Below are positions 13,201 to 59,537 of a stretch of DNA of 64,000 nucleotides, in pieces. Below the pieces are notes generated by a model that made no database searches, had not been told where the DNA came from, and saw only the letters and a program-made list of their open reading frames with translations. Positions within the stretch are counted from its first letter, which is position 1, and every line of letters starts with the position of its first letter. The DNA is taken from positions 4,092,001 through 4,156,000 of the forward strand of contig OZ374557.1 of assembly GCA_977862235.1 (NCBI GenBank), written 5' to 3'. Source of the stretch: Dudresnaya verticillata. Lineage: Eukaryota. The position numbers and the translations under genes are program-made.

Positions 13201-16200
13201 ACCGGAAGCGATTGCATGTGCGGTATCTGCTGCCACGGCTCACGCTGGTCTATGGCTTCTGAAAGTCCTTGAACGCGAAGATGGTGCGTTTGCTGTTGCT
13301 GCGGATGCTCTGTCTGTTCTGGCTGGGAATGTTCTCTGCCCGGGAACTGAACGAATGGCTCAGGTCCTGAGCGGGCTATTGTCAGGAAAGTCGTCAGTTC
13401 GCGATGCTGCCCTTGGTGCTCTTTTCCAAATGCCGTACTTATCCCATGGAATGGAATGCCCACGAGATTCTGCTCTTGGTCGAACACTGTGGCTTTCTCG
13501 CTTTGATCCGGATACCGCGAATTCTGACCTTGCGGATCAGTTGTGGAAAAATTACAACCATTCACTTGATTTTCAAGAGGACATACCTGCAATGCTGGGA
13601 CTACTTGGTCACAAGGAGTTTGATATTCGAATGATGGCTAGCAAGGCCATTGCTACTGCCATGAGTATAGGTGTGGACAATTGCACACGAGATGCGCTTG
13701 TTTCGCAGCTTCTTTCCATGTATATGCAAAGGGTTCCGATGGAGAACGCCCATAGTCGTCAGTTGGGGAGAGGGTCCCGGGCGTCCCAAAACCCCAGGGT
13801 AGACGTCATGAGAAAAGGATCGATTGCTGACCCTGTTGACAGCGGCTGGCCGTTGAGGGAGGGTGTTGCCCTTGCCATTGAGAACATGGCTTGCGTGAAT
13901 GTTTTGAATGTGGGGAATGTCACTCAATGTTTTGCGCTCTTGTCCCGTCATGGCCTGGGAGACACTAATGACTGTGTGCGTGGGAGAATGTCAAGAGCAG
14001 CAAATGCTATTGTCACTGCTGCAGGTGCAGATGGGCCACGTCACCTGCTTCCAATCATTGAGAAGGAGTTACAGGCGACTCTGTCGACCTCTGAGCCTGT
14101 CAGCGATTGTGAGCATGCTGAGAGAACCCGTGAAAATCTCGTCATGTGCTTGGGATTGGTTGCTGAGTACCTTTCTACAGACGACACTCGAGGTGATGCA
14201 ATAACAGACCTTGTGATCCGATGTGCACTAGAGACAAGATCAGAGGTGGTCCGGATTGCCGCTGCGGGCTGTCTTGCATCAATTTTCCGGGCAGGGTTAA
14301 GTTCGAATAGGGAGGAAGAGACCACAGAAAGCCTCCTGGGGATGACTTTGAGTGAATTTGTGGGACAGCATGAGAGGAGAGGAGCAGCATTCGCGTTGGC
14401 GGGTATTTGCAGGGGGTTCGGGTTGAAGTTCCTTAGACGCTGGAACATTGCTGCTGCTATCCAGCAATCACTGAAGGACAAATGCGCGCCTCGGCGACAG
14501 GGTGCGCTGATCTTTATTGAAACATTTGCGGGGGTGTTGGGCAGATCGTTCGAGCCATATACGGCGAAGTGTTTGCCTTTCTTGCTGTCATCTATGGGTG
14601 ACTCAGTAGTGGAAGTGCGGAAAACTGGCTGGGCTGCCGCCCAAGCAACAATGTCTAAGATTTCTTCTCAGGGTGCGAAGATGATTCTCCCCGCTTTACT
14701 TACTGGCTTGCAGGACCGCCAATGGAGAACAAAGGCCGCAAGTGCGGAGGTGCTCGGGGCCATGGCATTTTGTGCTCCGAGACAGTTGTCGCATTGTCTT
14801 CCTCAAATTGTTCCAAAACTTGCGGAGGCGTTGGGTGATGCCCACCCGCGTGTTGTCGATGCCGCAGAATCAGCAGTGAGCAGAATCGCTGCTGTCGTTA
14901 AGTGCCCAGAAGTGCGCAATTTGTCGCCGTTCATGCTGTCCGCACTAAGAGACCCCGCTAGGAACACAAAGGGAGCCATTGAAGCGATGCTCAGCTCTGA
15001 ATTTGTTCACGCCATTGACGCGGCATCCCTAGCGCTGCTTATGCCCGTACTTCACCGTGGTCTCCGGGACCGCTCCCCGGAGCTGAAGAAGAAGTCAGCT
15101 GCCATCGTTGGGTCCATGTGTAATAATGTGGCCAATCACCACGACGTTCTTCCGTATCTGAGCATTCTCATACCGGCGTTGCGCGCTGCGCTGTTAGACG
15201 CGATTCCAGATGTTCGACGTACAGCTGCGAGGGCGTTTGGAGCACTAGCATTGTCTCTAGGTGAATCTAACTTGCCTGGTGTGATGCCTTGGCTTATCAG
15301 TGCTTTACTGGGCAGAGTTGAGATCCTTGTGACGAACACGACCGAAAGACAGACCCGCAGGCTCCTTTCCTCTAGTGCGGAACGATACGGTGCCGCCATG
15401 GGTCTGGCAGAAGTGTCTGCATCACTTTCTGAGAAGCGACTTGATGATATGCTCGAGAAAGTCTTTTCAGCTTCTGACTCATCTCCCGCGGGGAGGGAGG
15501 GTGCCCTACTGCTCATTGGGAGTATGCCGAGCGCGCTGGGCCGAAGGTTTGAAGTCAGGCTGGCTCGAGCTCTTGTCGTGGTTTTGAAGGGGCTTGCTGA
15601 TGACGCGGATAACGTCCGTGAGGCCGCGCTCGACGCAGGGAGGAGCCTTGTTTCCGCATATGCGAGAAGCTCTCTTGAACATATTCTTCCTGAAATCCTT
15701 CGGGCTATGCGACAAAACTTTTGGCGAATACGCCTTGCTGCCACTCGCCTTCTTGGTGATATGCTGCTTGCCGTAGCTGGTACGCATACAGTTTGTTCTC
15801 CGCTAGATCTCAACAACAGAGGAAATTGTGAGATGGGAGTGTCAATAGGAGCGTCGGAACGCACATCAGCGTCAATGGCTGCTCACCCATCCGCTGTTCT
15901 GGCTGAAGAAGAAGATCTCGACTCGCCCGAAACAATTGCCGTTGCAACAACGACTGATGCAATGATGAGACACGTTCAAGCAGAATTTGGGACTGACCGG
16001 TGTAATGAAGTCCTTGCGGCATTGTATATTATCCGGTGCGACGTCAGTGTTAGGGTTCGTCAGGGAGGAATGCCAGTATGGAAAATGATCGTATCCAACA
16101 CGCCGAAAGTCTTACGGGAGATAATGCCGTCTGCTGTTCGTGAGATTATCGATGCTTTAGGCGATGCGGATAGTGAAAGAAGGACGGCTGCTTGCAAAAT

Positions 16201-18496
16201 GCTAGGTGATCTTTCGCAGAAGCTAGGAGAAGTCATATTGCCCGAGATAGTCCCGGCGCTGAAGTCTGGCGTATTAAGCCTGGTCTCGCCGCCTACATCA
16301 CGAAAAGGGGCAGCCGAAGGGCTACGAGAGTTAGTCATAGTGAGTCCAGGCTATCAGCTTAATGCGTATACAGCTGATGTGGTGGACACGGTTTATCACG
16401 GACTATGCGATGATGACGCATCTGTTCGCGCAGTTTGTGCGGATGTGTTCTCGTTGTTGCTCAGATCACTTGGTTCTCTCGCAGTTGACTCAATAGTCCC
16501 CATACTAATTGATGGACTGTCTGATGAGACTGAGGGCGAGAAAACTGCTCCCGTACGTTTCTTGAAAGCGTTGAGGCAGATCATGATCGCAAGTGGGCCT
16601 CGACTTCTGACACTGGTCGTCCCCGGCTTGCTTAAGGAAGGGAATCTGAGCATCGCTGCATCCAGGGCGCTGACAGTAGCGGCTGAAGTAGGAGGGACCA
16701 CGTTCGAACCACATATTGCGGGAGTTACGGAAGCCATTATTCGCAGTATTGAAAGTGGGCATACGGAAGGGTTTGAAGAGTTGCTAGCTGCACTCATGTC
16801 TTGTGGTGATCGGTCTTTGGAGCTGTTGCAAGAAGAATTGTTGTCGAAGCTCGAATGTTGTGTTGATCGGAGGGTTGCCGCGTGTACAGCGTGTGCTATT
16901 TTGTGCAGGGCATCACAGCAGCATGGAGTCCCTCTTGATTCGAAAAGCTTCTTGGAAGCATTTATTTGTCAGCTTGCAGACACTGACGAGCGAGCATCAT
17001 ATGCTGCATGGATGGTTTTGAAGGAGCTTTCAGTTGCAGTTCCAAATCGGGTCCTTAGTACTCATATTCCACTAATACGGCAAGCCTTGCGCTCAGCCTC
17101 AACACCGAAAGCGGGAGGAGACCAACACCGTCGAATACAACCTCTGCATCAACCGAACGCAGCGAGCCCCTTCATCCCGATCTTTACCGATGGCTTGCTC
17201 TTTGGAGAAGCTGAGCAGCGGGAACAGGCGGCTCTAGCTATTGCTGAATTAGTGGAGATCTCCGGCAGGAAGAGCTTTGAAAATTTCGTTGTCAAACTGA
17301 CCGGCCCCCTTATCCGAGTCATGTCGACGCACTTTCCTTGGCAAGTGAAGGGGGCTGCACTGGAGGCACTCGCACAGTTGCTGAACCGAACCCCAGAGAA
17401 GTTGAAGGCTTTTCTGCCGCAGCTCCAGAATATCTTCGTGAGGAGCTTGAGCAGTAGGAGTGCCCTCGTACGGAAGCGAGCGTGCAGTGGTTTAGGAGCC
17501 CTTGTTTCGCAAAAGATTAGATTGGACGGGTTGCTAGACGAGCTCATCTCTCTCAGTGCGAGCTCTGAGTTCTCTGGAACCAGAGCCAGTGCGCTCTACG
17601 CATGTTACACGTTGCTGCGATTCGGAACGCCGCCGTCGGAAAACAACACAACCTCAGTTCTTGCACGCATTGTTGATAGACTGGCTGATGATGATGAGGT
17701 TGGAACCGCAGCGGGGCTTGCTCTCGGGAGGCTGGCGATGTTATCTACAAGCTGTGAACAGTATGAGGCACATATCGACTTCGTTCAAAGCAAACTTGAC
17801 TCGGACAGGCTGGAAGCCCGCTATCAGGTTCAAATCCTGAAATCAATCGGTGCTGTGTTCTTGGCGGGTCTACACATACCTGGCCTTCGGTTCATCCACA
17901 TCGCACGGTCATTCCAAGCGGTGAATAACGAATTCGAAAGCACAAGTGCATCAATCAAAATTGCATGCTGTTCTACTGCGGCGGAATTGGTTGCGCTACT
18001 AAGGAATCGCGTTGCTAAGGAGCAAAACTGCGACCAGCAGACAAGAGCAACAGTGCTACGGATTATGAAATGCACTGGCTTAGATGCTCAATTGGATGTT
18101 CGCTTGGCGGCCTTGGAGGCACTTCGAGGGATTGTCACATTGAACTGTACAGAGTTGACGACATGTGCACGTAGCTTTGTTCTTTGTGCGCGGGACAAAA
18201 ACATTGCGTTGCGACGGGCCGCAGATCAGATTTTCAGGGGCGCTTTCTTCTCCGGACAGGAAGCTATTGAAGTGCATGAAAATATTGTACTAGCCAAGAA
18301 GGGCTTGGATGAGCACAGTCAAAGATTTCTGGACGCTCATATTAGCTACATTCGGGCAGATGTTGTTCTTGAGGACCAAGAGACATCACTTGGTGCAAGA
18401 ATTAATCTTCTTGCCGGAAGGAATCCTGGGGTTGGAGACACTGGGTTGATTGTACAGCAGAGCGATGGGGAAAGCGGTTGTAGGGAAATGCCATGA
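10295..18496 (+). CDS. GCN1: eIF2-alpha kinase activator GCN1 (HEAT-repeat protein), no intron apparent, ~2730 aa
   Basis: Characteristic GCN1 blocks: LGDTNDCVRGRM, ISSQGAKMILPALLTGLQDRQWRTKAASAEVLGAMAFCAPRQLSHCLPQIVPKL, FVHAIDAASLALLMPVLHRGLRDRS, WKMIVSNTPKVLREI, KLTGPLIRV, LKAFLPQLQ. The first ATG is at 10295; an upstream exon cannot be excluded. Confidence 0.95.
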   Translation: MTVLYLGASLPALVSCSRALPASLAESLLLNITVFPDRLSIAHACALLSRSPPPTISKLKANLEALVCNARRSQLSSDDTLKLVYAASLLFSVESLQLPCLSLLLTALEVLEGVRPSSQPLDETPARIMSSAYAMALSSLRPNISALTESLFDVLTHLTQPVPSAIIALALLSGLSESLCARDRERLVISATKVSVKGGLRVTERVTKLCAIPLRCADTELVAKGVLPILEKALLREPEMALPAATRLLSALSSICIVSCGTNNRLFTAVLCAVRSAEDITRIQGTELASVLGLRMRGPDIVSDGLSCLCKFLFGAKYSYQRATALDAISALSCSALKKNPHCIAPVVTTLESVLSWTRRRDCNAEGRFAGVRSVTRISAALLGVLKDTEPRPTVLEGSCVFLTNVLKGMTSDLEREVLLRLLTDTQQVFPLPISFFGDEGIQALENLLYCSSKPRPEARLRALTLLCDWTDRDGKGNNRHRDAVGQNLVSNSKIPCLLVESSRNPSVSLVICILRSCGWMIQRCRRAAEIALSVLFKLCLDDRADVSEAALKQVASIRVSANDSLSRMLFSVLWRTQFVGGTTGRGNFRFYDEGACKERLGRTLLATLLPSVPCTLRPLVSLAANHPRICGVQSFMTSRTWSSRYWHIIERSFGLYKCSRSERENWLEKCLCTIFGPEGFQNEDSSASSGALNTLAALLASGNWCSAHVVQRSILYLRLLVPSTWQLSLEAPTVSHSIEDMESRWNGNSCALSPEWIRNGRACGIGQSFFNFRCGQEAPSAVGRARMPEAGGASAKVTLLKMHPHDAAKALKVSRRILEAVGAFSKVTPQGMLNATGSILSLLNTFVRFEKLEQPCRHAISTVSQTGSQRLAHLFTDISNCLYDLGNDLALADWSIIARIIGHLDGIVPPNLCVRDFSLISPIIRAALTYEFSLLSEGTKRSGSVNQGRRNYVSVVKAAVQILLLHCKPEAIACAVSAATAHAGLWLLKVLEREDGAFAVAADALSVLAGNVLCPGTERMAQVLSGLLSGKSSVRDAALGALFQMPYLSHGMECPRDSALGRTLWLSRFDPDTANSDLADQLWKNYNHSLDFQEDIPAMLGLLGHKEFDIRMMASKAIATAMSIGVDNCTRDALVSQLLSMYMQRVPMENAHSRQLGRGSRASQNPRVDVMRKGSIADPVDSGWPLREGVALAIENMACVNVLNVGNVTQCFALLSRHGLGDTNDCVRGRMSRAANAIVTAAGADGPRHLLPIIEKELQATLSTSEPVSDCEHAERTRENLVMCLGLVAEYLSTDDTRGDAITDLVIRCALETRSEVVRIAAAGCLASIFRAGLSSNREEETTESLLGMTLSEFVGQHERRGAAFALAGICRGFGLKFLRRWNIAAAIQQSLKDKCAPRRQGALIFIETFAGVLGRSFEPYTAKCLPFLLSSMGDSVVEVRKTGWAAAQATMSKISSQGAKMILPALLTGLQDRQWRTKAASAEVLGAMAFCAPRQLSHCLPQIVPKLAEALGDAHPRVVDAAESAVSRIAAVVKCPEVRNLSPFMLSALRDPARNTKGAIEAMLSSEFVHAIDAASLALLMPVLHRGLRDRSPELKKKSAAIVGSMCNNVANHHDVLPYLSILIPALRAALLDAIPDVRRTAARAFGALALSLGESNLPGVMPWLISALLGRVEILVTNTTERQTRRLLSSSAERYGAAMGLAEVSASLSEKRLDDMLEKVFSASDSSPAGREGALLLIGSMPSALGRRFEVRLARALVVVLKGLADDADNVREAALDAGRSLVSAYARSSLEHILPEILRAMRQNFWRIRLAATRLLGDMLLAVAGTHTVCSPLDLNNRGNCEMGVSIGASERTSASMAAHPSAVLAEEEDLDSPETIAVATTTDAMMRHVQAEFGTDRCNEVLAALYIIRCDVSVRVRQGGMPVWKMIVSNTPKVLREIMPSAVREIIDALGDADSERRTAACKMLGDLSQKLGEVILPEIVPALKSGVLSLVSPPTSRKGAAEGLRELVIVSPGYQLNAYTADVVDTVYHGLCDDDASVRAVCADVFSLLLRSLGSLAVDSIVPILIDGLSDETEGEKTAPVRFLKALRQIMIASGPRLLTLVVPGLLKEGNLSIAASRALTVAAEVGGTTFEPHIAGVTEAIIRSIESGHTEGFEELLAALMSCGDRSLELLQEELLSKLECCVDRRVAACTACAILCRASQQHGVPLDSKSFLEAFICQLADTDERASYAAWMVLKELSVAVPNRVLSTHIPLIRQALRSASTPKAGGDQHRRIQPLHQPNAASPFIPIFTDGLLFGEAEQREQAALAIAELVEISGRKSFENFVVKLTGPLIRVMSTHFPWQVKGAALEALAQLLNRTPEKLKAFLPQLQNIFVRSLSSRSALVRKRACSGLGALVSQKIRLDGLLDELISLSASSEFSGTRASALYACYTLLRFGTPPSENNTTSVLARIVDRLADDDEVGTAAGLALGRLAMLSTSCEQYEAHIDFVQSKLDSDRLEARYQVQILKSIGAVFLAGLHIPGLRFIHIARSFQAVNNEFESTSASIKIACCSTAAELVALLRNRVAKEQNCDQQTRATVLRIMKCTGLDAQLDVRLAALEALRGIVTLNCTELTTCARSFVLCARDKNIALRRAADQIFRGAFFSGQEAIEVHENIVLAKKGLDEHSQRFLDAHISYIRADVVLEDQETSLGARINLLAGRNPGVGDTGLIVQQSDGESGCREMP

Positions 18497-18905
18497 TAGC
18501 CTGCACGATTAGGTCTCCCACACGTATACTAGGTAACTGCGTAAGTTCACAAACCCCCATTGTTTAGCCAAGAACGAGCCTTTTACATGAACAAGACCGT
18601 CCGGCTGGGCGCCGTACTAGTTGCGAAGCTCTTTATGATGTTTTTTGGCGGTGTATCATGGCGCCCAGGGTGCGGCGCGTGTCAGTCAATATGTAGTGAC
18701 CCAATTACCGCGCTCTATACTCACCACGTCGCGTATACTCAACTGCTGATTGGTCGCTCTTGGCCAATACATTCACTCTATACTCAAAATATAGAAAACC
18801 TGGCACAGGCATTGGTCCGCGGCCATTTCGTGACAACAGTGACTAATGGTAACGCGTTTCAAATCGGAACGGTCGGAAAACGCGCGGGTGTGCAGCCGCG
18901 ATTGA

Positions 18906-19029
18906 TGTAAGATACTGTAATGCGTACGGATCCCATGAGTACTTAAGGATCGTCCGCCCGGTGTCCTCCCCCTCTAGCCATCAATAATTACCATCTTCCA
19001 TTCCCGTAAAGGACCCACACCATCTCATA
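18906..19029 (+). repeat. Copia 5' LTR (124 bp, TG...TA)
   Basis: Identical to 25889-26012; immediately followed by the PBS. Confidence 0.97.
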
Positions 19030-19037
19030 TGGTAGCA
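19030..19037 (+). promoter_or_regulatory. Primer binding site TGGTAGCA (initiator tRNA-Met type)
   Basis: TGG-starting motif abutting the 5' LTR, complementary to a tRNA 3' end ...UGCUACCA. Confidence 0.75.
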
Positions 19038-19229
19038 TCGACCTGAGGCAAGACTACTTCAGTCTCTCAGTTGCGCTGTACAAAAGCTTTCTAGAGCGTG
19101 CGGATCAACCCTGCTAGAAGACTTTCGCAAGAAGACCGTCGACCTGTCCGATCTTCTCGCTTTCGTGTGCGTGTTGACATTGTCCAACACACGATAATTT
19201 CCCGACCTGACCGACCACAACCCCTCAAC

Positions 19230-20054
19230 ATGACCGATCCCACTCCGCTCCCGACGAGCACTGGATCAAGCCCATCAGTCGCTGAGTCTTTCAGCTCGGA
19301 GGCTGACCTCATTTGGCAACTCTTGGAACGTGACAGCGTCCTTCCGGACCTCGTCCCATTCTGGCCAGGTGAGAACGCCGTTTCTCTCCGCGACAAGATC
19401 ATTCCGCCGCATGACCCATCCGCCGGTCCGATGCCGATTGGTTTTGCCTACTTCATCGTCAAGGATCTACGTACCATGCCACTCGAGCACCGCACAAGTC
19501 GTGTCTCGAAATTCATCTCGAAGGGTTCTCTCAAGGACTACCACGAGACATGGGAGTCGATTCTCCATTCCTTCCTCATCGTCTACTGCAACAGTCAGCG
19601 TACGCACACTCGGCGCAAGACGCGACTGCAATGTATTCACGATACAGTGGATGGCTACGACCTGTATCGCGAATCTGAAGATACCGCGACATCGGAAGAC
19701 AAAGACATTGTCGATCCGATCCCGACCGGGAACTTCAAAGCAAAGTTCGAGGAAGCCCGCCTGCTCGACCATGGCCAGGAACATGGTAGCAAACCTACCC
19801 CGATCGCCACCGATGCGAACGAAAACTCCAATGAGAGGTACAGCAGCTCGGTTACCGATCTGCAGAAGAGCATTCAGGCAATGACGTCTCTCTTTCCTTC
19901 CGAATCGCGTATCACTGGAGAAGAATCCGAGACTTTCAACGTCAAGCTTGCGCCGATCGTCCAGCAAATGGAAGCTCTCCGAATCGCCCGGAGCACCGTT
20001 CGACAGTTTTGTTTTCACTTCTGCAAGGCAAAGCTCGCGAAACAGCTTCGATGA
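19230..20054 (+). CDS. Copia Gag, N-terminal part; frameshifted relative to the downstream gag-pol near 19985-20010
   Basis: ATG at 19230 (MTDPTP). The protein-like reading continues in the -1 frame as PEHRSTVLFSLLQGKARE. Confidence 0.7.
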   Translation: MTDPTPLPTSTGSSPSVAESFSSEADLIWQLLERDSVLPDLVPFWPGENAVSLRDKIIPPHDPSAGPMPIGFAYFIVKDLRTMPLEHRTSRVSKFISKGSLKDYHETWESILHSFLIVYCNSQRTHTRRKTRLQCIHDTVDGYDLYRESEDTATSEDKDIVDPIPTGNFKAKFEEARLLDHGQEHGSKPTPIATDANENSNERYSSSVTDLQKSIQAMTSLFPSESRITGEESETFNVKLAPIVQQMEALRIARSTVRQFCFHFCKAKLAKQLR

Positions 20055-23000
20055 TACCGCTGCACAACACCACTCTGGATTCATTCGTCGAAGAAGTCTC
20101 CAAGACCATACTTTTCGATCCGGACATTCAAGAAAGACGAGTCACCCGTTGGAATAACCTCAAGTACTCCGATCTCCGCTCCAAGGCATCTACTGAAGAA
20201 GAAGCTACACGAGAGTGCATCAAGCACACCAAGAACCATCAGCTCGATCTTCCATTGCACATGCGTTCCGAGCAACTCTTACCCTCCCGTCTTCGAGAGA
20301 TATTCCGATTCATCCCCTGGTGTGAAACACTGTATCACCGCAGTACCCTCATGGAAACGCCAGCGTCTTTTGGGAGCAAACTCATCTCCGCTGCGTCCAA
20401 CTCGGATCTTCGCAGTAAGAACACTAGTAGCAGCTCGAAGGCCATAACGCCTTACCCCGTCTACCAGCCAGCGTCTTCAACCCCACAGCAGCCGGATCAT
20501 GGAAATTCTTTATCCAACGCGTCAACGTTGGCAGCATTCTTCGCCAAAACACCTCCACCTCCGCGTCACCGCAGACCGCAACGTTATCAAAGCTACCGGT
20601 ATCACAGATTTGGCAGCAACTATGACAACCGACGACCGACACGCCCGCCTCAATATCGACAACCCTATTCGTACGGCTCTCGCCAGTCATACAACTCCGG
20701 AAGACCATCGTTTCAGAATCGCGCGCCGCCTTTCCTCCGCCGCGGTAAGAAACTCTGCTATGGTTGTGGCAAAGAAGGTCACTTTCTACGTGACTGCCCC
20801 GAGAAGGCCTACCACAATCAGCGCCTCACCCACCTAGCCAACATTGGACACGCTGCAACCTTCCTCATGGAACATGACGCCGAAGAGTGTTCGGATGACC
20901 ACAGCCAGGTTCTACAGTTTGTGAAAGAAAACGCGAACTCGACAGGTATCGAGCCCGACATCGACGACGCAGAAGATACGAGCCATTTCCATGCGTGGAT
21001 CTGCGATCTCTTAGAGACTTATGACTCTGTCACCTCTACCGCAGGAAACTCGTACCACGTCAAGCTTTCTTTGCCCGAACTGGAAACCGCTATGCGCGAA
21101 CTCGTCTTCCACGCTATAACGCAGAGAAGGAACATGATACTCATCGACACTGGAGCCCCGAAGACAATCTGTAGCATCGAATGGCTTCAGAAAGCCAACT
21201 GGAATCCAGTCAAGATCGTCCAGTTGCCGGACCACATTCACCCGTTTCGCTTCGCTGGTCACCCCGTACGTGCGCTACACGGAGCCTGTCTCATCGCAGT
21301 TGTACGAGATATTGCGGGCAATCCGCATTACCTTCGCACATTTGCATTCGTACTTCCAGAGACGCCCATACCGTTTCTGACAGGATTGCAGGACCACATT
21401 CGACTTGGATTCGACCTTTGTCTCCGTGCCAACAATGGCAGTCACCTCAAAGTCAATTCGTGGAACTCCATTCTGCCCCTTGTGGTGACATCTCATCTCT
21501 GGCTACAGTTCGAAACGTGCAACTCCGATCCGGACCCGAAGTTCGATTGGACTGCCCTCATCCAGAAAGCCATTGATCCCGCAACGACATCTGGTCCGTT
21601 GTATGTCAACACCACAAGCAACGGCCCAACTCAGCTTGGATCCGCACAAGATGGTATCGTCCTCGATTGTAACGGAGACCACGATTCCGCTTCAGAGGAA
21701 ACTTCGCAGGACCTCCACGACCATGCATCGCTGACAAACATCGAGAAGAATTCCTATTTCCCAGTTCCACCATGGGAACAAGACGGATGGACCTCGAACA
21801 CGACGCCAGACCAGATCACAAGGCTGCACAAGGGACTCAAGCACCCAGAGAATTCACAGATTCTCAAGCTGTTCCGACAACAGCACGGCGGAACTAAACT
21901 TCCTAGTGCCTTGGTCCACAAAATTATGGACCACAAGTGCAAGGATTGCGAAGAGCATCCTCAACTCCCACGCACACCGAAGCTCTCTATTCCGCCGGAA
22001 GCCGCCCCCAACATTGTTGTCTCCCTGGACACAATGCCGCACATAATTCGTAACAAGTCTGTGGAAATTCTCGTCATGATCGACAGCGGAGACGCCATGA
22101 TACGTCTTCGATTCCTATCTGACAAGTCCGCATTGACCGCCTTCAACGCGTATTACTCAGCCTGGATAGCATACTTTGATGCGCCACACTTCACCGTCGT
22201 TGACAGAGGATCCAACCTGGTTAACGCACTTATGGCCGACAACCTCCGCCAGGTGCAATCTCAGCTCTGCCCGATTCCGACCGAAGCCCCATGGTGCATT
22301 GGCAACAACGAACGTTCGCACAAGTTCCTCCACCGTGCCATCGACAAGTTGACCAACAATCCAGAATACCAAGTTGGAAGCATGTACGAGCGTCTGCTCG
22401 CTGATGTAGAAATGGCCTGGAACTTCTGCCAGCACAGCAACAACATACTTCCACACTACCAACGATTTGGAAGCATGCCACGAATTCTTGGTGAACTGGA
22501 AACCCCCCATACAATCACGGAACGCGTTGTACTAATGGATATGGCTCGCAAGGCAACCGAACATGCGAGAGCATCCAACCTGATTCGACGTGCGCTCAAC
22601 ACGCATAAGCGTCCTGGTCAAGCACTACGCCTGTTTTCAATTCGTCAACCCGTCTGGTTCCATCGCCGCAAACATGGTTGGCGTACAGGAGAAGTTGCCC
22701 GTATCGATAGACCAACGATATACGTCAATCATCACGGCAAGTTGTTCCCAACACATGAGAATCGCGTGCGACCATACTTCGGAGCTCTATCTCTGCCTCC
22801 TCCAATCTTGCACGACGACCCAGACATTCAAGAGTACCTGGACATCCCTAATGAAGAGAACATGCCTCACCCAGGTCCCGTGACATCATCAGGAGGGGCA
22901 CCCATTTCGGAACTACTCAATGGAGTTTTCGCATGCAGTTCTCAGCCCCAAGGCCGAGATCTCTTCACCGCCTCAATAGCAGATACAAGCATCACTGTCC

Positions 23001-24745
23001 AGCTTACAGGTACTGAATTAGGAGTTGCCGATTCAGACAACGTATTCCTCACGACAACCAAGATGGTCACGAAAGCGACCGCTCTCACGAAGGAACAACA
23101 GGACAAGTTCAGAACAGCCAAGCTCGAAGAAATCAACTTCCTTCTGAAACGCGCTGTGAAACCGGTTCCACACGCCGACGTCCCCACCGAGTGTGAACTT
23201 CAACCGTTGAAATGGATACTGGCGATTAAGACGACGACGCAACCGAAAGCATCTGAACGGTATCGCGCTCGGCTCGTCAGTGCCTCTCATCGCTCGAAGT
23301 ACAGGCATTCAGTTCATGGAAATGCACCGACCGTAGCATTGAGTACTGTTCGAGCACTGTATGCAGTCACACCCATGTGGATCATTGCAGCAGAGCAAGC
23401 ACAAGACCCGATACATCTCTTCACACGCGACGTCACCAAGGCATACTTGCAGAGCAACGAGACTCAAAGACTCATCTTCTACCGACCGCCCAAGGAATTT
23501 GTCGAGTCATTCCCAGACTACAACGACCACGCTTGGAAATCCATCGTTCAGTTATATGTAGATGTTGAAGCAGGTCTCTATTGGAATCGCACCTTCGTCC
23601 CCTGGATTGTCGAGAACATACCCGATCTTCACCAATCGATGTATGACCCCTCATTGCTATACAGCCGCCGTCACAACATGGCTATACTCCTTTGCACCGA
23701 TGACACCAGCGTTGTAATGCCCGAGTCCATGATTCGTCACGAAGAAAAGATCACGGAACGATTTGAGTGTCGCAGCCGACAGCAACTTCCCACGGACTTC
23801 AAGGGTATCGACATAGCCCGCCAAGGAGACAAAATCATCCTCTCGCAGGTCGAGTATCTTCAATCTCATCAACACAACTCTCCAGATAGCACCAAACCCG
23901 AACTACAACGCGAGATGACAGATGAAGAAATATCGGAACATCGTACCGTAGCAGGACAACTCGCATGGATTGCAACTGGCACGGCCCCATTGTCTGCATA
24001 CACTTCAAGCATCGCTTTGCAAGGAACAGCACGTCCGGTTCAGCTCAAGTTGGAGACCATCAAAGCACTGCAAGCCGCCAAGGAAGAACGCGCATCGCAG
24101 CTGACTTATGTCCCTTTGAATCCTGAAACAGTACACATTCGCATGTACAGCGACGGATCATTCCAGAATCTGGCACTCAAGCACTCCCAGATTGGATTCA
24201 TCGTCACCTTAGCAGACCACGAAGACAGATTCAACCTGGTACACTGGCACAGTTCTCGATCTCCACGACGAGCTCATTCCACAGAGGAATCTGAACTTAT
24301 GGCGCTCGACATCGCGTTTCGGTTCATACGCAACTTCCGGAACATCCTCTTCGAACTACTCAAGAAAGAAGTTCCGATTGTCGCATACATCGACAACCAA
24401 ACATTGTGGAGCAACTTGATGAATTCCACAGTCCCAAGTATCCCAGAAGTCATGTACAGGTGCCGGGACTACATACATGCTGGTCTCATTGCGAGTGTTT
24501 GTCTTATACCAGGACCGGATAACCCTGCTGATGCCATGACCAAGTCTCGGCCCAACAACAAGCTGAAGCAAGCGGTTAACACCAATATATGCCACACACC
24601 AGCAAAAAGAGTCTTCATGCTGCAGACAAGCCCTTTCCGACATTCGAAGTACATCCCCACTTCATCTGTCCCAATGCCAGCTGACACCCGTGCTCAAGAG
24701 TCGCCTCCATCACCTGGAGAAATTGCAAGTGTCATATTGCAATAA
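20009..24745 (+). CDS. Copia Gag-Pol: zinc knuckle, aspartic protease, integrase, reverse transcriptase, RNase H
   Basis: Zinc knuckle CYGCGKEGHFLRDC; protease LIDTGA; integrase LHKGLKHP...CKDC with SLDT/VVDRG/NNERSH (DDE); RT YRARLV, RDVTKAYLQS, CTDD; RNase H YSDGS, EESELMAL, YIDN, NPADAMTK. Confidence 0.95.
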   Translation: MFSLLQGKARETASMIPLHNTTLDSFVEEVSKTILFDPDIQERRVTRWNNLKYSDLRSKASTEEEATRECIKHTKNHQLDLPLHMRSEQLLPSRLREIFRFIPWCETLYHRSTLMETPASFGSKLISAASNSDLRSKNTSSSSKAITPYPVYQPASSTPQQPDHGNSLSNASTLAAFFAKTPPPPRHRRPQRYQSYRYHRFGSNYDNRRPTRPPQYRQPYSYGSRQSYNSGRPSFQNRAPPFLRRGKKLCYGCGKEGHFLRDCPEKAYHNQRLTHLANIGHAATFLMEHDAEECSDDHSQVLQFVKENANSTGIEPDIDDAEDTSHFHAWICDLLETYDSVTSTAGNSYHVKLSLPELETAMRELVFHAITQRRNMILIDTGAPKTICSIEWLQKANWNPVKIVQLPDHIHPFRFAGHPVRALHGACLIAVVRDIAGNPHYLRTFAFVLPETPIPFLTGLQDHIRLGFDLCLRANNGSHLKVNSWNSILPLVVTSHLWLQFETCNSDPDPKFDWTALIQKAIDPATTSGPLYVNTTSNGPTQLGSAQDGIVLDCNGDHDSASEETSQDLHDHASLTNIEKNSYFPVPPWEQDGWTSNTTPDQITRLHKGLKHPENSQILKLFRQQHGGTKLPSALVHKIMDHKCKDCEEHPQLPRTPKLSIPPEAAPNIVVSLDTMPHIIRNKSVEILVMIDSGDAMIRLRFLSDKSALTAFNAYYSAWIAYFDAPHFTVVDRGSNLVNALMADNLRQVQSQLCPIPTEAPWCIGNNERSHKFLHRAIDKLTNNPEYQVGSMYERLLADVEMAWNFCQHSNNILPHYQRFGSMPRILGELETPHTITERVVLMDMARKATEHARASNLIRRALNTHKRPGQALRLFSIRQPVWFHRRKHGWRTGEVARIDRPTIYVNHHGKLFPTHENRVRPYFGALSLPPPILHDDPDIQEYLDIPNEENMPHPGPVTSSGGAPISELLNGVFACSSQPQGRDLFTASIADTSITVQLTGTELGVADSDNVFLTTTKMVTKATALTKEQQDKFRTAKLEEINFLLKRAVKPVPHADVPTECELQPLKWILAIKTTTQPKASERYRARLVSASHRSKYRHSVHGNAPTVALSTVRALYAVTPMWIIAAEQAQDPIHLFTRDVTKAYLQSNETQRLIFYRPPKEFVESFPDYNDHAWKSIVQLYVDVEAGLYWNRTFVPWIVENIPDLHQSMYDPSLLYSRRHNMAILLCTDDTSVVMPESMIRHEEKITERFECRSRQQLPTDFKGIDIARQGDKIILSQVEYLQSHQHNSPDSTKPELQREMTDEEISEHRTVAGQLAWIATGTAPLSAYTSSIALQGTARPVQLKLETIKALQAAKEERASQLTYVPLNPETVHIRMYSDGSFQNLALKHSQIGFIVTLADHEDRFNLVHWHSSRSPRRAHSTEESELMALDIAFRFIRNFRNILFELLKKEVPIVAYIDNQTLWSNLMNSTVPSIPEVMYRCRDYIHAGLIASVCLIPGPDNPADAMTKSRPNNKLKQAVNTNICHTPAKRVFMLQTSPFRHSKYIPTSSVPMPADTRAQESPPSPGEIASVILQ

Positions 24746-24769
24746 GACATGCACGTATATGTCGAAGGT

Positions 24770-25627
24770 TTACTCCCTTTTTCGCTTGATACGCTGCTTC
24801 ACCAACCTTCGCACCTCCGCAACTCGTAGGTCAGTCACATCGGAGCCCCCGGTCTGTTTCAGGAGCTCCTCACATAACCGCATCGGAAAACGCGAAGCAC
24901 TATCAGCAACAAGTTTGCGGTCACCATCGACCACAATGCAGTGATCAACAACCAAGTCACGCACCACCCGCACGAGCCAGACACCTTCCGCCCTGCTGGC
25001 CAACCACTGGAACTTGTTCTCGTGAAACTTCAATTTCTCCTCCTTCGGTACCTTCCTTATAGCAAGATCTCCGCCTAAACTGTGTACAAGAGGCGTCAAC
25101 TTCCCGAAATGTTGGACACGTGGAAATTGATTGCCGAGCTCTTCCTTAGCCGCATTTGTCCTTCCACTGCCGCACAAAGCATGAACTGCGTTGAGAACGG
25201 ACGCAAGCACGCAATCACCGTAATTTGCGCACATGAAGACTGCCCCGAAACTCCACACTTGATACTTGCGCTCATTTCCAATCGCACTTCGTGCTCCAGG
25301 TCCGCTGATGTCCACCACGACACCCGGATACTTGCGCAAGAACTGAACAAGTCGCCTGAGTACATCCCCGTCATCCGGATGCAGGCAAGTACTGTTACCT
25401 TCCACCGGCGCACCCGCATTGTGGTTCCCAGTCGTGCCAACCGAGGGCAGCACCAGCGCCAAGTGGTGCAGGCGCAAAGACTTCTCTTGAATTGCATGGA
25501 AGCTCTCGTGTCCGCCAGCACGCGTCGCGCACCCGTACAGAAGACCTTTCTGAAGGACAATGCCGCTCGCGTCGCTTCCGCCGCCGCCCGCTTGCACGCG
25601 CTCGACGTTCCAAGTGCTCGCGCCCAT
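24770..25627 (-). CDS. Antisense extra ORF inside the Copia element; putative papain-fold cysteine peptidase (C39/Josephin-like)
   Basis: ~285-codon ORF between pol and the PPT with GDCVLASVLNAV, GVWLVRV...DHCIVVDG and LVADS (Cys-His-Asp order), ending in the basic tail KQRIKRKRE. Confidence 0.6.
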   Translation of the reverse strand: MGASTWNVERVQAGGGGSDASGIVLQKGLLYGCATRAGGHESFHAIQEKSLRLHHLALVLPSVGTTGNHNAGAPVEGNSTCLHPDDGDVLRRLVQFLRKYPGVVVDISGPGARSAIGNERKYQVWSFGAVFMCANYGDCVLASVLNAVHALCGSGRTNAAKEELGNQFPRVQHFGKLTPLVHSLGGDLAIRKVPKEEKLKFHENKFQWLASRAEGVWLVRVVRDLVVDHCIVVDGDRKLVADSASRFPMRLCEELLKQTGGSDVTDLRVAEVRRLVKQRIKRKRE

Positions 25628-25876
25628 CGCCAAGGGTACAGGAAGACAGTGGCGTCACCGGAGCTAGCCACCACTTGCTGTAGTAGCCCCAAGGCGAAGG
25701 CACTGCGCACGGTTGACAAGCCGGTCCGCGTACAGTTCGCACGACAGGGTGCGTCATATAAGATGCACCGTGCAGTGTACGACACCGCCGACCGTGGCGA
25801 AATGCGCCCGACGATCCGTCCGTTTCGCCCGGCAAAGCCCAGCGCGGCAAAACTCCCGCCTGTTTTCTTAACGTTA

Positions 25877-25888
25877 GAGAAGGGGGAA
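25877..25888 (+). promoter_or_regulatory. Polypurine tract of the Copia element
   Basis: gagaagggggaa directly before the 3' LTR. Confidence 0.9.
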
Positions 25889-26012
25889 TGTAAGATACTG
25901 TAATGCGTACGGATCCCATGAGTACTTAAGGATCGTCCGCCCGGTGTCCTCCCCCTCTAGCCATCAATAATTACCATCTTCCATTCCCGTAAAGGACCCA
26001 CACCATCTCATA
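25889..26012 (+). repeat. Copia 3' LTR (124 bp)
   Basis: Identical to 18906-19029; followed by the TSD ATTGA. Confidence 0.97.
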
Positions 26013-26069
26013 ATTGATCCATTGATCCCACCCGGCCCCCACCCCTCCCGCCATGGCCCCCCGCCATCG

Positions 26070-26761
26070 TGTGGTACAATGAACCGCCAGCGGCTGTAAG
26101 CACGTACACGTGTTTGGCGCCTGTAATGCGCTGGTAATATTGCGCGTGGCATGCGCCCGTAAGGCGCTGCACATGCTGGTGCCCTGTAAGGCCCAAATGC
26201 ATTGCTGGCCACTCTGTATGGCATTGCTGGGAACAGCACGACGCCAATGAGATGGCTAGCCGTGGTTGGCTGATTTACCATGGCCTTACGCGCAGGAGCG
26301 CGTCCGAGTCATAAGCACCTTACGTGCGCAGGGCGGAGTACGACCGCTCACTACCTCATTGTAATTATTAACGCTAACTTCAATAGCTTAGAATAGGAAT
26401 AGCGCCGAAGGCGCTTTCGGCCTTCGCCATATTTATTGCGCCCCTGACTAGCAGGGATCTGCTGAATAGAACCCTACGGTGGGTTTCCGGTCTGTACCCT
26501 TTCTTTGGTCTACACAGGCTCACAGTACTCCCCCTTCCAGGTGCTTTACAAGCTTTAGCCTCGTACGGCTTCGTACTCTACGAGTGTTAGGGTGGCGCCG
26601 CCCCTTTTCCCCTTTATTTCAGGCACGCTAGCCTTTTTCCCTTTTCCCTCAAAGTCTCTACCAACTCCCCATTGAGCTACCCTCGTTAGGGTGTGTGCGC
26701 GCACGGGACAGCTGTCCTTGCCGTTTAGCGGGCTACTGGCTCGTCGCGCCATACTACTACA
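26070..26761 (+). mobile_element. Solo LTR of the Gypsy family below, opposite orientation, TSD CATCG
   Basis: TGTGGTACA...CTACTACA is the reverse complement of 27332-28020. CATCG occurs at 26065-26069 and 26762-26766. Confidence 0.93.
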
Positions 26762-27331
26762 CATCGCCCTGTAGCACAACGGGTCCAGCCCAGGAAGAGC
26801 AAGGAAAACAAAGGACACCTGTCCGGAACCGTCGTGCTCACGGGTAGCTCGGGTGTGGTAGAGGCTTGGTAGAATGGCACTAGGCCACGAAAAAGGAAAA
26901 AGGAAAAAGGGGGACGCAACCCGGTATTCCGCAGGGAACCTGCCGTACGGTGACGAGCCTGTAGTTGGCATCCAGAAAGGGAACGGGAAGCGCCCGGAAT
27001 CCAGAAAGTGGTCAAGACCGAGAAACTCCCCATAGGGTTCAATCAGGGGTGCCCTGCTATTCAGGGGACCAATAAATAGGGCCTTTGCCCGTGCTAATAC
27101 TAGCTAATACAGTGTACTGTACACAAATTACATTGAGCAATTGGAGGCGGATTCATGCCCCTGTGGCGGCGTATAATCGGGAAATACCCTAGCGCCACAC
27201 CAATGGTCGTGCGTCAATTGCGCGTCTGAGGCGCGGATGAGTTCGCGCCAGGCCGTAGTAATATGGCGCGACTAGCCAGTTGGGGTAATAAAGGGAACCG
27301 ACCCAGAACCGATTCTAGTTCGGGAGACCAC

Positions 27332-28020
27332 TGTAGTAGTATGGCGCGACGAGCCAGTAGCCCGCTAAACGGCAAGGACAGCTGTCCCGTGCGCGCACAC
27401 ACCCTAACGAGGGTAGCTCAAAATGGGGAGTTGGTAGAGACTTGAGGGAAAAGGAAAAAGGCAAGCGTGCCTGAAAGAAAGGGAAAAAGGGCGGCGCCAC
27501 CCTAACACTCGTAGAGTACAAAGCCGTACGAGGCTAAAGCTTGTAAAGCACCTGAAAGGGGGAGTACTGTGAGCCCGTGTAGACCAAAGAAAGGGTACAG
27601 ACCCGAAACCCATCGTAGGGTTCTATTCAGCAGGCCCCTGCTAGTCAGGGGCGTAATAAATATGGCGAAGGCCGAAAGCGCCTTCGGCGCTATTCCTATT
27701 CAAGCTATCGTAGTTAGCGTTAATAATTATATTGAGGTAGTGAGCGTTCGTACTCCGCCCTGCGCACGTCAGGTGCTCATGACTCGGGCGAGCTTCTGCG
27801 CCTAAGTCCATGATAAATCAGCCAATTACGGCCAGCCATCTCATTGGCGTCGTGCTATTCCCGGCAATGCCATACAGAGTGGCCAGCAATGCATTGGGAC
27901 TTACAGCGCACAAGCACGTGCAGCGCATTACAGGCGCATGCCACGCGCAGTATTACCCGCGCATTACAGGCGCAGAACACGTGTACGTCCTTACATTCCC
28001 TGGCCACTCATTGTACCACA
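27332..28020 (-). repeat. Gypsy 3' LTR (also followed by a PBS)
   Basis: Similar to 39986-40672 with scattered mismatches. On the minus strand it is preceded by the purine-rich tract agagaggga. Confidence 0.93.
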
Positions 28021-28780
28021 CGGGTCCCTCTCTAAAGCTGAGAGACCCGCGAAGCCAGCAAGGCTGTTTCCATTGGCCCGGTTGGGGCGCGCACACAGAG
28101 TGGACGTCCCAAACGGCCCGTGGAGGGCGACTGTAACCGCCACGAAAACGCCCGTCTTGCGACTGCCGCGTGGCGACAAATCACCGTACGCCCTTCTGGC
28201 GCCGGGTGTCCCGTCTCGGCGGGCATCTTTCACAGCATCCAGTATTGCTTTCGCGCGAAAGCCTCGAACAGCTGGTTATTTCAAGCGCTATTCCGCGGGT
28301 TCCCAGTAGAGCCTTCTGGCCATCTCAGTACCTCGCACCTCAACACCCTTAGAGTCTGCCGCTGCGTGCCTTTGTCTCCATCTGGCCTGGTTTGTAGCGT
28401 TCACAGCGCCGCTGGTGCTTCCTCTGCCTTGGGGTTCGTCGCGTGGTTACGCTGTGCTTGCACTAGGGCGTTCATCCCACCAGCGTAGCCGTCCGTGGAT
28501 TTGCAGCGAGTATCGCCTCTTTGCCCGCGGGGCGCTACGCATCCCGAAGCCTCGTCTTGGCGCAAGCGGATGTTCTCGAGAAGGTTAGGAGAGCCCAACG
28601 GGGCCCAGGTGAACAAGTCGAGCAAGAAAGCCTCGTCGTGGCTCAAGAGCAGCAGTCGTGATGATCGGGATCCAACACATGACATTTGGTGCGGCTGGGT
28701 CGAGTGTAGGTGTACTCGGCGTGGAGATGGATGAGGTAGGCGTGCCTTTGAGTATCAAGAATAGCCGCGATTAGCGCGTG

Positions 28781-32627: not shown

Positions 32628-35600
32628 TCACTGTCTCTCGGGATTATGAGGATCTGTATCCGCATTTGCGCCCTCAATTCGCCCGTTCGGCGCCGTCAAG
32701 CCCTGAACTAAGTTAGGAATCCCATTCGAGGGGCCGCTAGGATCCACACCGGTGGCGATTAGGGTAGAATTGCTTACTTGTGGCGTGAGGTCCACTACTG
32801 AAGGGTGTTGACCCTGCGCGCCTGTTTCTTCATGCGGCGAGGGGGCCAAGGTAACCCGATCCAGAGATGTCGTCTCTCTATCTGCTTTGATGTCTAGAAC
32901 TACAACGTTCTTTCCGCGTTCTAGAACCTTATACGGCCCGAGAGCCTTGGGGAACAACTTCCCTTCGCGGGCCACACCTGAAGCGTCCTTCACCTTCGTT
33001 TCCCTCTCTATGAAAACCCAAGACCCAGGCCTCACTTTCAGGTTAGCCGGTCGAATCCGATTATTGAAATTCGTTTCATAGCGCCGTTGCGCTAACCTCA
33101 TCCGCGGTAAGGCCGTCTCCATCAGCTTCTCTAAGCGTACAGTCAGCTGCTTCTTAACGTTAGTCGCCGGCACGTGGTCGACGTCCAGTGTCTCTTCTTG
33201 TTCCATTAAGATGGATGTCGGGGGGTTAGATAACACCAGATCGAAGGACGCCAGACCCGTAGCACGATGTACAGTAGTGTTATACGCGTACGTTAACGCA
33301 GAGGTAAACTCGTCCCAGTCTTCTGATCTTCGTCGATGAAGTGTCGCAAATCCGCTAGGAGGGTACGATTAAATCGTTCTGTCTGACCGTTCGTCTGTGG
33401 ATGATAGGTTGACGTAAACATATTCCTAATTCGAAGGATGTCGCACACCGCGAGGAAGAACTCGTACGCGAATTGCGAGCCATTGTCCCAAGGACGTAAC
33501 GGGGTGGACCGAATATGAAAACCCAATGCTCACAGAAAGCCTTGTCCACCGTGTAAGCTGTCACTGTCTTCAACGGTATCGCTCGCGTGAGTTTGGAGAA
33601 TCTGTCAGTCATGACTAGGAGGAACTCATTTACTTTGCCTGAACGGGGCAGGGGCCCGAGGATGCCGATCCCTATGAATTCCAAGGGCAACGTTGCCGGG
33701 AATAACTTCATATAGGAAGTATTTTTTCGAAGCTAGACGCGCTCTTGGGCGCACTTGACGCAATTCCTTACTGTCGCGTACACGTCCAGAGACATCTCAG
33801 GCCAATATACCTGTCGTCGAAGGTTATGATACATCCTGGTACCACGAGGGTGGCCGGCCAACTCCGGGTAGTGCGCTAGGTGTAGAACTTTTTCTTTCAG
33901 CGATCTAGGTACGAGTACGTGTAGTGCGTGGTCCACGTACGACTTGTGCACAAGGAGTCCTCTCCTATCCTCGAGATAGCAACCGGGCTTACCCGTCTCG
34001 AGGTTCCGCCGAACCCAGACGCAGAAGTCTTCTGATTTTTACTCTCGGAGCAGCTCCTCCACTATTATAAGGGAGAGACCCTTCTGGTTCGATTCCTTGT
34101 CAGCCACCTGAACTATTAGCTGTTCGTCACTCTAAGGGTCGTCGTCCTCGGGTTCGACTTCTCAAACCTCTAAGGGTTGGGGTTGCGCACCCGTTCGTGG
34201 TTTCCGCGCTAGCGACCGTTCGTCGCGGGCGTCCCTTTGATCGTCTTTGATTACAAAACAGGGAATCTCGAGGTCCGGTTCCCACTGGGTGAAGCCGTAA
34301 GTTGGCAGCCGAGAGACCGCATCAGCGATCTGATTCTTCTTTCCTTTTCTGTATTGTACCTTGAAATCATATTCCAACAGGCGTAGCCTCCAGCGGGCCA
34401 GTCTCCCTGAAGCATCGGTCATGCTCATCATCCATTTTAAAGCTTGGTAATCCGTCTACAGGTAGAAGTGGGACCGTTACAAATATGCACGAAGCATCTG
34501 CGTTGCCCAGACCACTGCTAGGCATTCTTTCTCGCCTACCGAGTAGTTCTTTTCCGCCTTCGTTAGGCCGCGGCTCCAAAACCCGATGGGATGTCGGGTG
34601 CCATCTTCTTCCATCTGCATCAATGCGCACCCGATTTGGTAGTCACAGGCCTCCGTGTCGACGGAGAGAGCCTTACATTCTTGAGGGAGCCGCAGTATCG
34701 GCGAAGCGACTAACGATTTCTTGAGTAGTTCAAACGCTTCTCGCCGACGTTCGTCGAACGTTGGCAACTCGAAGCCCTGATTCTTTTATAGGGGTGTGTT
34801 GAGTGGGGCCGCCACGCGCGTGAAGTTAGGCACGAAGCGCCTGCACACATTACAAATTCCAATAAACGACCGTAACTGGGTCTGAGTCTTCGGATCCTTA
34901 AAACCTTCGACGGCTTGGGTATTCTTGGTTGCCACTTCTGGCAATCCTGGGCGGATCACGTGCCCTAAGTAGTCAACGCTCTTCGTGAAGAAGTTGCACT
35001 TCTTCAGTTTCAGCGAAACTCCTGCTTCTTGCAGTACTTCTAGAATGTCCTTCTCGTATTTGAGGTTTTCGTCGACCGTAGTCGAGAATATAATGATGTC
35101 GTCCAAATAGACTAAACAGATTTTCCACATGAATCCGGAGAGTAGGATATCAACCGTATGTTGAAAGGTCGCGGGAGCGTTACAGAGCCCGAAGGGCATC
35201 CTGAAGAACTGGAAACATCCGGCATGGCAAGTGAAAGCCGTCTTGTGCTTGTCTTGTTCCTTGACTGGAATTTTCCAATACCGAATTACAATCCAAGGTT
35301 GTAAAGTATTGGGCGTTTCCCAGCGAGTCCAGACACTCGTCCATCCGCGGGAGAGGATATGTATCCTTCACTGTGATAGCGTTCAGCTTGCGGTAGTCGA
35401 CGCAGAAACGTAGGGACCCATCGGGTTTCTTGACCAGCACTACGGGGCTTGCAAACGCCGTGCGAGCAGGCTCGATGACGCCTTCTTTAAGCATCTTGTC
35501 TACTTCGTCCTTGTTCGACTTGTCTAGCTTTCGGGCCCGACCGATAGGGTTGCGAGAATACAGGTTTGGAACCTTCTTGCAGTTCAATTCGGTGCTTGTT

Positions 35601-39410: not shown

Positions 39411-39973
39411 TTGTCCTCATGGAGGAAAGAATGCCGGAACGGCTTCCAGCACGACTGGTTAATCCCGGTCGGGTGGTATCGCCGTTGGAAGTCGGCATGT
39501 TCAGGTCGGTCTTGACGACCTAAACGAAGGATATCGGTCCTGTGGTTGCCTGACGGGAAAATGTTCCAAGTGGGCAATCTTCTTCAGAACCGTCGTTCTC
39601 GGGGTTACGGGCGATTCTGACCACGCGGTCTTTCCGCAATGCGCGGCCGCACAGCACGTACAAGGACGTATTTTTTGTACAGGTATTACAATAACCTGTT
39701 GAGGTTCTCCCGGAAGGGGCGTCAATCCACGACTAGGATGTGCTCGTTGAACTTAATAAACCGCCACGGCGGTAGGGTTGCTTGCACTAGATTTGACGTG
39801 ACTCCAGCGCTTGATTTGAAGCTTAGGACCGTCGTCACCTGGAAGACTAGGGTTTCAGCGTCAGGTATTCTAACCTTGAGATCTTGCAGGGAGAAAACTG
39901 GATCCTTGAAAATTCCAAAGCGATGAACTGACGTTGAGGTAATAAAGGGAACCGACCCAGAACCGAATCTAGG

Positions 39974-39984
39974 TCGGGAGACCA
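39974..39984 (-). promoter_or_regulatory. Gypsy primer binding site TGGTCTCCCGA
   Basis: TGG-starting motif 1 nt after the 5' LTR. The same motif occurs at 27320-27330. Confidence 0.8.
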
Positions 39985-39985
39985 C

Positions 39986-59151: not shown

Positions 59152-59510
59152 TGTGCAGTCGCTGCAAATTTTGAGGTCTTGCACAACCCGTACCTTCTTG
59201 GCACTGTGCAGTCGTTGGAAATTTTCAAGCGTTGCTCACTGCGTACCCTCTAGGTACTGTGCAGTCGTCGCAAATTTTCAAACGCTGCACAACTCTTGAT
59301 ACTGTGCAGTCGTCGCAAATTTTCAAACGCTGCACAAATCTTGATACCGTGCAACCGTTGGAAATTTTCAAGCGTTGCACACAACGTACCTTCTAGGTAC
59401 TGTGCAGTCGTTCCAAATTTTCAAACGCTGCACAACTCTTGGCACTGTGCAGTCGTTGCAAATTTTCAAGAGGTGCACAACTTTTGATACTGTTTAATCG
59501 CAAATTTGAA
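59152..59510 (+). repeat. Regular array of seven 34-bp palindromic motifs (plus one degenerate) with 19- or 11-bp linkers
   Basis: Starts at 59152, 59205, 59258, 59303, 59348, 59401 and 59446 (periods 53, 53, 45, 45, 53, 45); consensus tgtgcagtcgttg-caaatttt-caaNNgctgcaca. Confidence 0.95.
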
Positions 59511-59537
59511 AAAGGTAGCTCTACTGACAGTGAAGCG

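Follow-up and report, generated by a model that had tools for sequence, protein, structure and literature searches.

A predicted papain-fold cysteine peptidase encoded antisense to pol in a Copia retrotransposon of Dudresnaya verticillata

An open reading frame (ORF) of 285 codons, running from ATG to TAA against the genes of the retrotransposon that carries it, raises the questions of whether it is a gene at all, what kind of protein it encodes, and what such a protein could do for the element. The ORF lies in a 64,000-nucleotide stretch of contig OZ374557.1 (hereafter the window, numbered from its first letter), in the interval between the RNase H region and the 3' LTR, and its end is separated by 24 bp from the pol stop codon. 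An intact antisense ORF within an element bounded by identical LTRs had been described in an earlier note on this DNA, and both parts of that description were confirmed (Table 1).

The host element is 7.1 kb in length, with identical 124-bp LTRs and a 5-bp target duplication; the identical run detected at the LTRs was 125 nt, comprising the LTR and one flanking base. Given its domain order of zinc knuckle, protease, integrase, reverse transcriptase (RT) and RNase H, the element at 18906-26012 is a Ty1/Copia LTR retrotransposon. The labels for protease, integrase and RNase H are based on motifs that we take to be diagnostic and not on Pfam matches; a weak gag_pre-integrs match was also present in the element's frame (E 0.075), whilst the first ORF returned no Pfam match above the cut-off. 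The identical LTRs together with the intact target duplication indicate that the insertion is recent, and no second copy of the element was found in the 64-kb window. The gag and pol genes occupy different frames, the cause of which may be a lesion, an assembly error or a programmed shift. At their 3' ends (19029 and 26012) the two LTRs have TA, where CA is usual. The GalEa clade, as characterized in the available part of PMC5445492, has the primer-binding site TGGTAGCAGAGC, a 5-bp target duplication, LTRs of the form TGT...CA and a single ORF; the present element agrees in the length of its duplication and, in one run, at 8 of the first 12 bases of the primer-binding site, but differs in the LTR terminus (TA, not CA) and in using two frames.

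Table 1. Features of the Copia element and its antisense ORF (positions in the window)
Feature	Position	Strand	Remark
5' target-site duplication	18901-18905	+	ATTGA; copy at 26013-26017
5' LTR	18906-19029	+	124 bp; TG start, TA end
Primer-binding site (PBS)	19030-19041	+	first 8 nt identical to the GalEa tRNA-Met PBS (PMC5445492, in part)
First ORF, putative N-terminal gag	19230-20054	+	first ATG 19230; stop 20054
1636-codon stop-to-stop frame	19835-24745	+	overlaps first ORF in a different frame
Zinc knuckle	20756-20797	+	PF00098, E 6.6e-5
Aspartic protease DTG	21146-21154	+	motif position
Integrase	about 21827-22318	+	motif position
RT, RVT_2 type	about 23264-23707	+	PF07727, E 1.3e-7
RNase H	about 24146-24544	+	motif position
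Antisense accessory ORF	24770-25627	-	285 aa, ATG to TAA; between RNase H and 3' LTR
Asp242, predicted third triad residue	24902-24904	-	D in 128/138 rows; end of strand 239-242 (model)
His229, predicted general base	24941-24943	-	H in 133/140 rows; strand 227-234 (model)
Cys139, predicted nucleophile	25211-25213	-	C in 123/128 rows; first residue of helix 139-152 (model)
Arg113, GPGAR motif	25289-25291	-	R in 111/113 rows
TATA-like hexamer, candidate internal promoter	25756-25761	-	134 nt upstream of antisense ATG
Polypurine tract	25876-25888	+	13 nt; directly 5' of 3' LTR
3' LTR	25889-26012	+	identical to 5' LTR
3' target-site duplication	26013-26017	+	ATTGA

The insertion is situated about 410 bp downstream of the stop codon of an intron-free GCN1 gene (2747 codons, 10253-18496, forward strand; PF24987, E 1e-72). 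Just after the 3' LTR is a foldback-like long inverted-repeat element (26068-28035) whose arms are 87-100% complementary, and an extra copy of one arm is present about 12.6 kb away, at 39933-40687. Elsewhere in the window, a reverse-strand frame (32628-33368) seems to resemble a Gypsy-type integrase in that protein's C-terminal part, and a forward ORF of 1878 codons (43874-49510) has DEAD and Helicase_C domains in the last third of its product, behind a long unassigned N-terminal part; we take its appearance to be RecQ-like and possibly that of a mobile gene. A further forward ORF of 1228 codons (59397-63083), preceded by short direct repeats (59150-59481), had no Pfam match.

Simulation of the interval 24746-25888 with a first-order Markov model produced a stop-free frame of at least 285 codons in 8 of 1000 runs. 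The possibility of a chance origin is removed by conservation at the protein level, and the antisense ORF is almost certainly a real gene. A word-based search retrieved a first homologue (29% identity, E 1e-29), a profile of these two sequences retrieved three more, and when 1.84 billion cluster representatives were scanned with HMMER the family grew to 674 clusters at E<=0.001, with 271 at 1e-10 and 39 at 1e-30; the analysis drew on the best 150 of these, and the representative matches listed range from 97 to 613 amino acids. One named member is KAI0560883.1 of the red alga Gracilaria domingensis. The antisense ORF defines a large peptidase-like family of 674 clusters that Pfam does not recognise: neither it nor its first homologue matched any Pfam or PHROGs family, no Pfam family was common to two or more of 150 members, and the C39 and Josephin families were each matched by none of the 150 alignment members at E<=0.1. 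Sequence searches of the PDB returned two chance-level matches and no more for the single protein, and no Josephin at E<=10 for the profile. A profile match to the mitoribosomal protein mL43 (E about 1e-4) was discarded, as it covered two short helical stretches outside the catalytic region and mL43 was also absent from the listed fold results. Leads from the ESM Atlas were DUF261 (0.93, at a low shared-feature count), YopQ and C39 (both 0.87). Pattern-limited scans confirmed no relatives in viral contigs, with either the antisense ORF or pol as query, and none were confirmed in prokaryotic species genomes or phage records. Three homologues (P0003, P0006 and P0108) are located on sequences of 6619, 6732 and 6869 nt, near the size of the 7.1-kb element, which is weakly consistent with collapsed retrotransposon contigs.

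A scan of metagenomes confirmed one locus, L001, among 553 pattern matches. Its homologue is 34% identical to the antisense ORF (E 4e-48), retains the Cys, His and Asp residues, and is encoded on the strand opposite to a Copia RT and RNase H, ending 22 bp away from the stop codon of pol. Upstream of it, at the point where a 3' LTR would be expected to start, this single copy has a purine tract and then TG. The RT of L001 is interrupted and split over frames, and its antisense ORF is whole. The tail-to-tail antisense arrangement was thus present at both of the loci for which DNA context was available, and as their RNase H sequences are just 26% identical, it holds in distant Copia lineages; no nucleotide similarity was detected between the two elements. 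An AT-rich box at about position 1075 of L001 precedes the first antisense ATG by 133 nt. Its spacing resembles that of the TATA-like hexamer in the present element (134 nt), and this agreement, seen in two cases, may be due to chance.

These two loci also bear on whether the family belongs to the elements or to their hosts. With DNA context known from 2 loci among 674 clusters, many members might be host genes or reside in other elements, and in G. domingensis the annotation treats KAI0560883.1, on a 166-kb contig, as a hypothetical gene of the ordinary kind. That the family is a host gene family, picked up occasionally as neutral retroelement cargo with no role in transposition, is nevertheless very improbable, given that at both loci the gene is antisense and tail-to-tail at the same place, in Copia elements that are only distantly related, and that transduced genes are usually sense-oriented and present in few copies (PMC7264820). 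The shared position could instead suggest that the product acts on the element itself, by processing its Gag, Pol or integrase, or by remodelling the particle or pre-integration complex, and a regulatory role in the transposition cycle has been suggested for antisense ORFs of LTR elements (PMC7264820). This alternative appears improbable, since an aspartic protease motif is already present and conserved cleavage sites would be hard to keep in elements whose RNase H sequences have diverged to such an extent. Since that motif has been kept, the new enzyme does not stand in for the aspartic protease. Nor is the ORF env-like, being antisense and without a clear membrane segment; its maximum Kyte-Doolittle mean over 19 residues is 1.48, at residues 127-145, which overlap the catalytic helix.

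The structure of the product was modelled with AlphaFold2 from 150 sequences (pLDDT 90, pTM 0.83). In this model a domain with an unmatched fold (residues 1-110) precedes a papain-fold domain (about residues 111-283), in which Cys139 starts a helix, His229 lies on a strand and Asp242 ends the next strand. The best 50 rows of a wide VIA search were all papain-fold proteins aligned over residues about 111-283, the family labels of some of these rows being those that we presume to apply. Among the matches listed, the C39 domain of PCAT1 was best (Z 9.1, rmsd 3.6, 130 residues aligned), followed by AvrPphB (8.5), staphopains and a viral-tegument-like deubiquitinase (both 8.1) and Josephins (7.7-7.8). 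The top scores are in effect ties that single out no one family on the strength of the model, and Z scores of 8 to 9 are little above the level that the tool calls common; the papain-fold assignment accordingly derives from the uniformity of the VIA list and not from any single score. By gapless extrapolation from the first aligned residue of the VIA ranges, Cys139 falls 1-2 residues from the catalytic Cys of PCAT1, ComA, ATXN3L and staphopain, at what we take to be the positions of those residues. In a Foldseek search, a check of the kind suggested in the earlier note, no PDB match reached E<=0.001 (best 0.024), though nearly all of the top PDB rows were papain-fold enzymes. The viral library BFVD likewise gave no match at E<=0.001 (best 0.005), with weak peptidase-like rows. 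The N-terminal residues 1-110, folded alone (pLDDT 74), had no Foldseek match below E 1.8 and a best VIA Z of 3.2; these results gave no support to a Tudor profile match at E 1.5 or to a chromo/Tudor-like identity for this region.

Conservation within the family points to the same catalytic residues. In an alignment of 154 proteins including the query, with two rows originating from one 90% cluster, the most conserved columns after the initiating Met were Arg113 (98% of the rows with a residue there), Cys139 (96%), His229 (95%) and Asp242 (93%). The earlier note had identified the same Cys, a His 90 codons further on and an Asp 13 codons beyond that, and these positions proved exact; across the family the triad is complete in 96 of the 119 rows that span it. 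The other 23 spanning rows comprise nine real substitutions, five replacements of Asp by Glu or Asn (the Gracilaria protein among them) and nine gaps. Over the core, the rows have a median identity of just 30% with the query (104 rows), so the conservation of the triad and Arg113 is selective, and the best-kept other cysteine of the query, Cys230, is found in 80 of 140 rows, with the remaining cysteines less conserved. Taken with the papain-fold matches of the model, the conserved Cys-His-Asp upholds the proposal of a transposon-encoded papain-fold enzyme, and it is very likely, as far as a structural model can indicate, that the antisense product is an active papain-fold (clan CA) enzyme.

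The nature of the reaction is less clearly indicated. Most clan CA enzymes have a Gln or Asn shortly before the catalytic Cys, and no Gln or Asn majority was found in the alignment at positions 133-138. Arg113 is a candidate oxyanion or substrate contact. A papain-fold enzyme without proteolytic activity, such as a deamidase or an acyl- or peptidyl-transferase, with a host protein or metabolite as its substrate, could account for a near-invariant Arg113 in company with the missing oxyanion Gln/Asn, and the structural neighbours include phytochelatin synthase; yet the best of these neighbours are peptidases, and as nothing points positively to a site for a second substrate this explanation is quite improbable.

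A deubiquitinase had been put forward in the earlier note as one possible function, and it is this part of its proposal that has been weakened. The enzyme would be a deubiquitinase or ubiquitin-like isopeptidase, of Josephin-like or clippase type, that shields element proteins from breakdown or strips ubiquitin or SUMO from chromatin. Josephins, ZUP, viral-tegument-like deubiquitinases and UfSP all occur among the structural neighbours, although C39, AvrPphB and staphopain score equally or higher, and Ser comes directly after Asp242 in 88 of 137 rows, as in what we take to be the Josephin 'DS' motif. At the position following the catalytic His, the family has an aromatic residue in 3 of 133 rows, and Cys, Val or Ala account for 116. 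Since ZUFSP-type deubiquitinases have no aromatic residue there either, this composition only lowers the probability of a deubiquitinase. The spacing from His to Asp is 13 in 113 of 120 rows. Conventional deubiquitinases, by comparison, usually have an aromatic 'gatekeeper' after the catalytic His, and three bacterial Josephins have a His-Asp spacing of 16, according to the available part of bioRxiv 2024.07.24.604956. Precedents in other transposons exist, as Ulp1 and OTU domains are found in Ginger1, Mutator and Helitron elements (PMC2836005, in part) and the VTD domains of Helitrons are active deubiquitinases (PMC9741609, in part). On balance, a deubiquitinase seems unlikely.

The non-aromatic residue after His229, the spacing of 13 in place of 16 and the retention of the element's own aspartic protease motif together favour a sequence-specific endopeptidase directed at a host protein. 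AvrPphB and staphopain have a small residue after the catalytic His and cut non-ubiquitin sequences. We consider the evidence evenly balanced for the reading of the antisense ORF as an accessory gene of Copia elements, not described before, for a cysteine peptidase that is likely to cut a specific host protein; the narrower proposition that the enzyme cuts a host protein in a sequence-specific manner, at a site other than the diglycine of ubiquitin or SUMO, falls somewhat short of such a balance. On the preferred reading, the gene would be transcribed from an internal antisense promoter adjoining the 3' LTR, and its product, an intact and conserved extra of a young Copia element, would be a papain-fold cysteine peptidase with the triad Cys139-His229-Asp242. 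Catalysis would proceed by way of an acyl-enzyme, with the thiolate-His-Asp chemistry usual for such enzymes, and the substrate might be chosen by the loop bearing GPGAR and Arg113 together with the N-terminal domain. The target could be a nuclear or chromatin protein, for example a silencing factor, and its cleavage would favour the activity of the element.

With regard to location, the C-terminus that the earlier note called NLS-like is basic in the query, but this is not a family character, as a basic tail was present in just 17 of 63 parsed homologue tails. Residues 2-11 of one protein of the 154 (P0108) resemble a histone H3 tail, a single case hinting, at the level of sequence, at a link with chromatin. 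These two observations, along with the nuclear product of Grande gene23 and the chromatin-type accessory genes of red-algal transposons, suggest by analogy that the substrate is probably nuclear. It is conceivable, though doubtful, that the family represents a new clan CA lineage of counter-defence effectors, bearing an unmatched N-terminal fold, which has spread in antisense orientation among distant red-algal Copia lineages and cleaves a chromatin or silencing protein; the target may possibly be a histone tail, cut in the manner in which bacterial effector proteases cut immune proteins. If the substrate does belong to host silencing or chromatin, this would be a retrotransposon turning proteolysis against host control, of which no case was found for LTR elements in the literature searched. 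The predicted enzyme fold and conserved triad make the function directly testable with one point mutant.

Amongst known enzymes, peptidase C39 (PCAT1, ComA) provides the best listed structural match and has the same Cys-His-Asp order. In the C39 enzymes a Gln just ahead of the Cys contributes to the oxyanion site and the His is followed by an aromatic residue, whereas the antisense product has no conserved Gln and a non-aromatic residue at these positions, in addition to an extra N-terminal domain, no ABC transporter and no sequence match to C39. The Josephins and bacterial clippases have in common with it a compact papain core and the order of the triad (Z 7.7-7.8), and the Josephins differ in their spacing and aromatic gatekeeper and in having no sequence match.

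Amongst mobile elements, the nearest parallels in position include Grande and RIRE2, both of which are Gypsy elements. Antisense ORFs between pol and the 3' LTR are described, in the available parts of PMC7264820 and PMC11963269, for maize Grande (gene23), rice RIRE2, Retand (TRP28), PvRetro13 and Botrytis Boty, all with the same position and orientation as here, and none is described as a peptidase in those parts, the domains named being TRP28, SMC and similar. An upstream promoter of its own and a nuclear product have been shown for Grande gene23, and antisense extra ORFs are widespread in LTR retrotransposons, their function being an open question (PMC7264820). In contrast to Retand, of the Gypsy lineage, the carrier here is a Copia element, and its product has a predicted enzyme fold and conserved triad. 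The Ulp1, OTU and VTD proteases are likewise cysteine protease domains with intact catalytic residues in mobile elements; according to the available parts of PMC2836005 and PMC9741609, however, they belong to named deubiquitinase families and are fused to the transposase or RepHel of DNA transposons, whereas the antisense ORF stands alone in an LTR retrotransposon and has no Pfam match. It also lacks the Asp-x-His motif of the VTD triad, its order being Cys...His...Asp.

Extra ORFs for a GDSL esterase and a DEDDy exonuclease occur in rotifer LTR elements (PMC5408684, in part), and accessory genes PAG1-3 have been reported in red-algal Plavaka transposons, as have predicted chromatin functions for accessory genes of red-algal DNA transposons (bioRxiv 2025.02.11.637652, in part). 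Accessory genes are thus common to distant mobile elements, PAG1-3 being in red algae, and the present gene adds a case to those of seaweed mobile elements, though the enzymes differ in the parts of these sources available and PAG1, which has no assigned domain, might conceivably belong to the present family. The literature searched, with subscription journals mostly and Repbase outside it, described no LTR element, whether Copia or another, with a gene for a papain-fold peptidase, including in the available parts of PMC13547354, PMC12477816 and PMC3248453. Antisense ORFs at this site and enzyme-coding extra ORFs of LTR elements were, then, already known, and what appears to be new, within the literature searched, is a predicted papain-fold peptidase in a Copia element.
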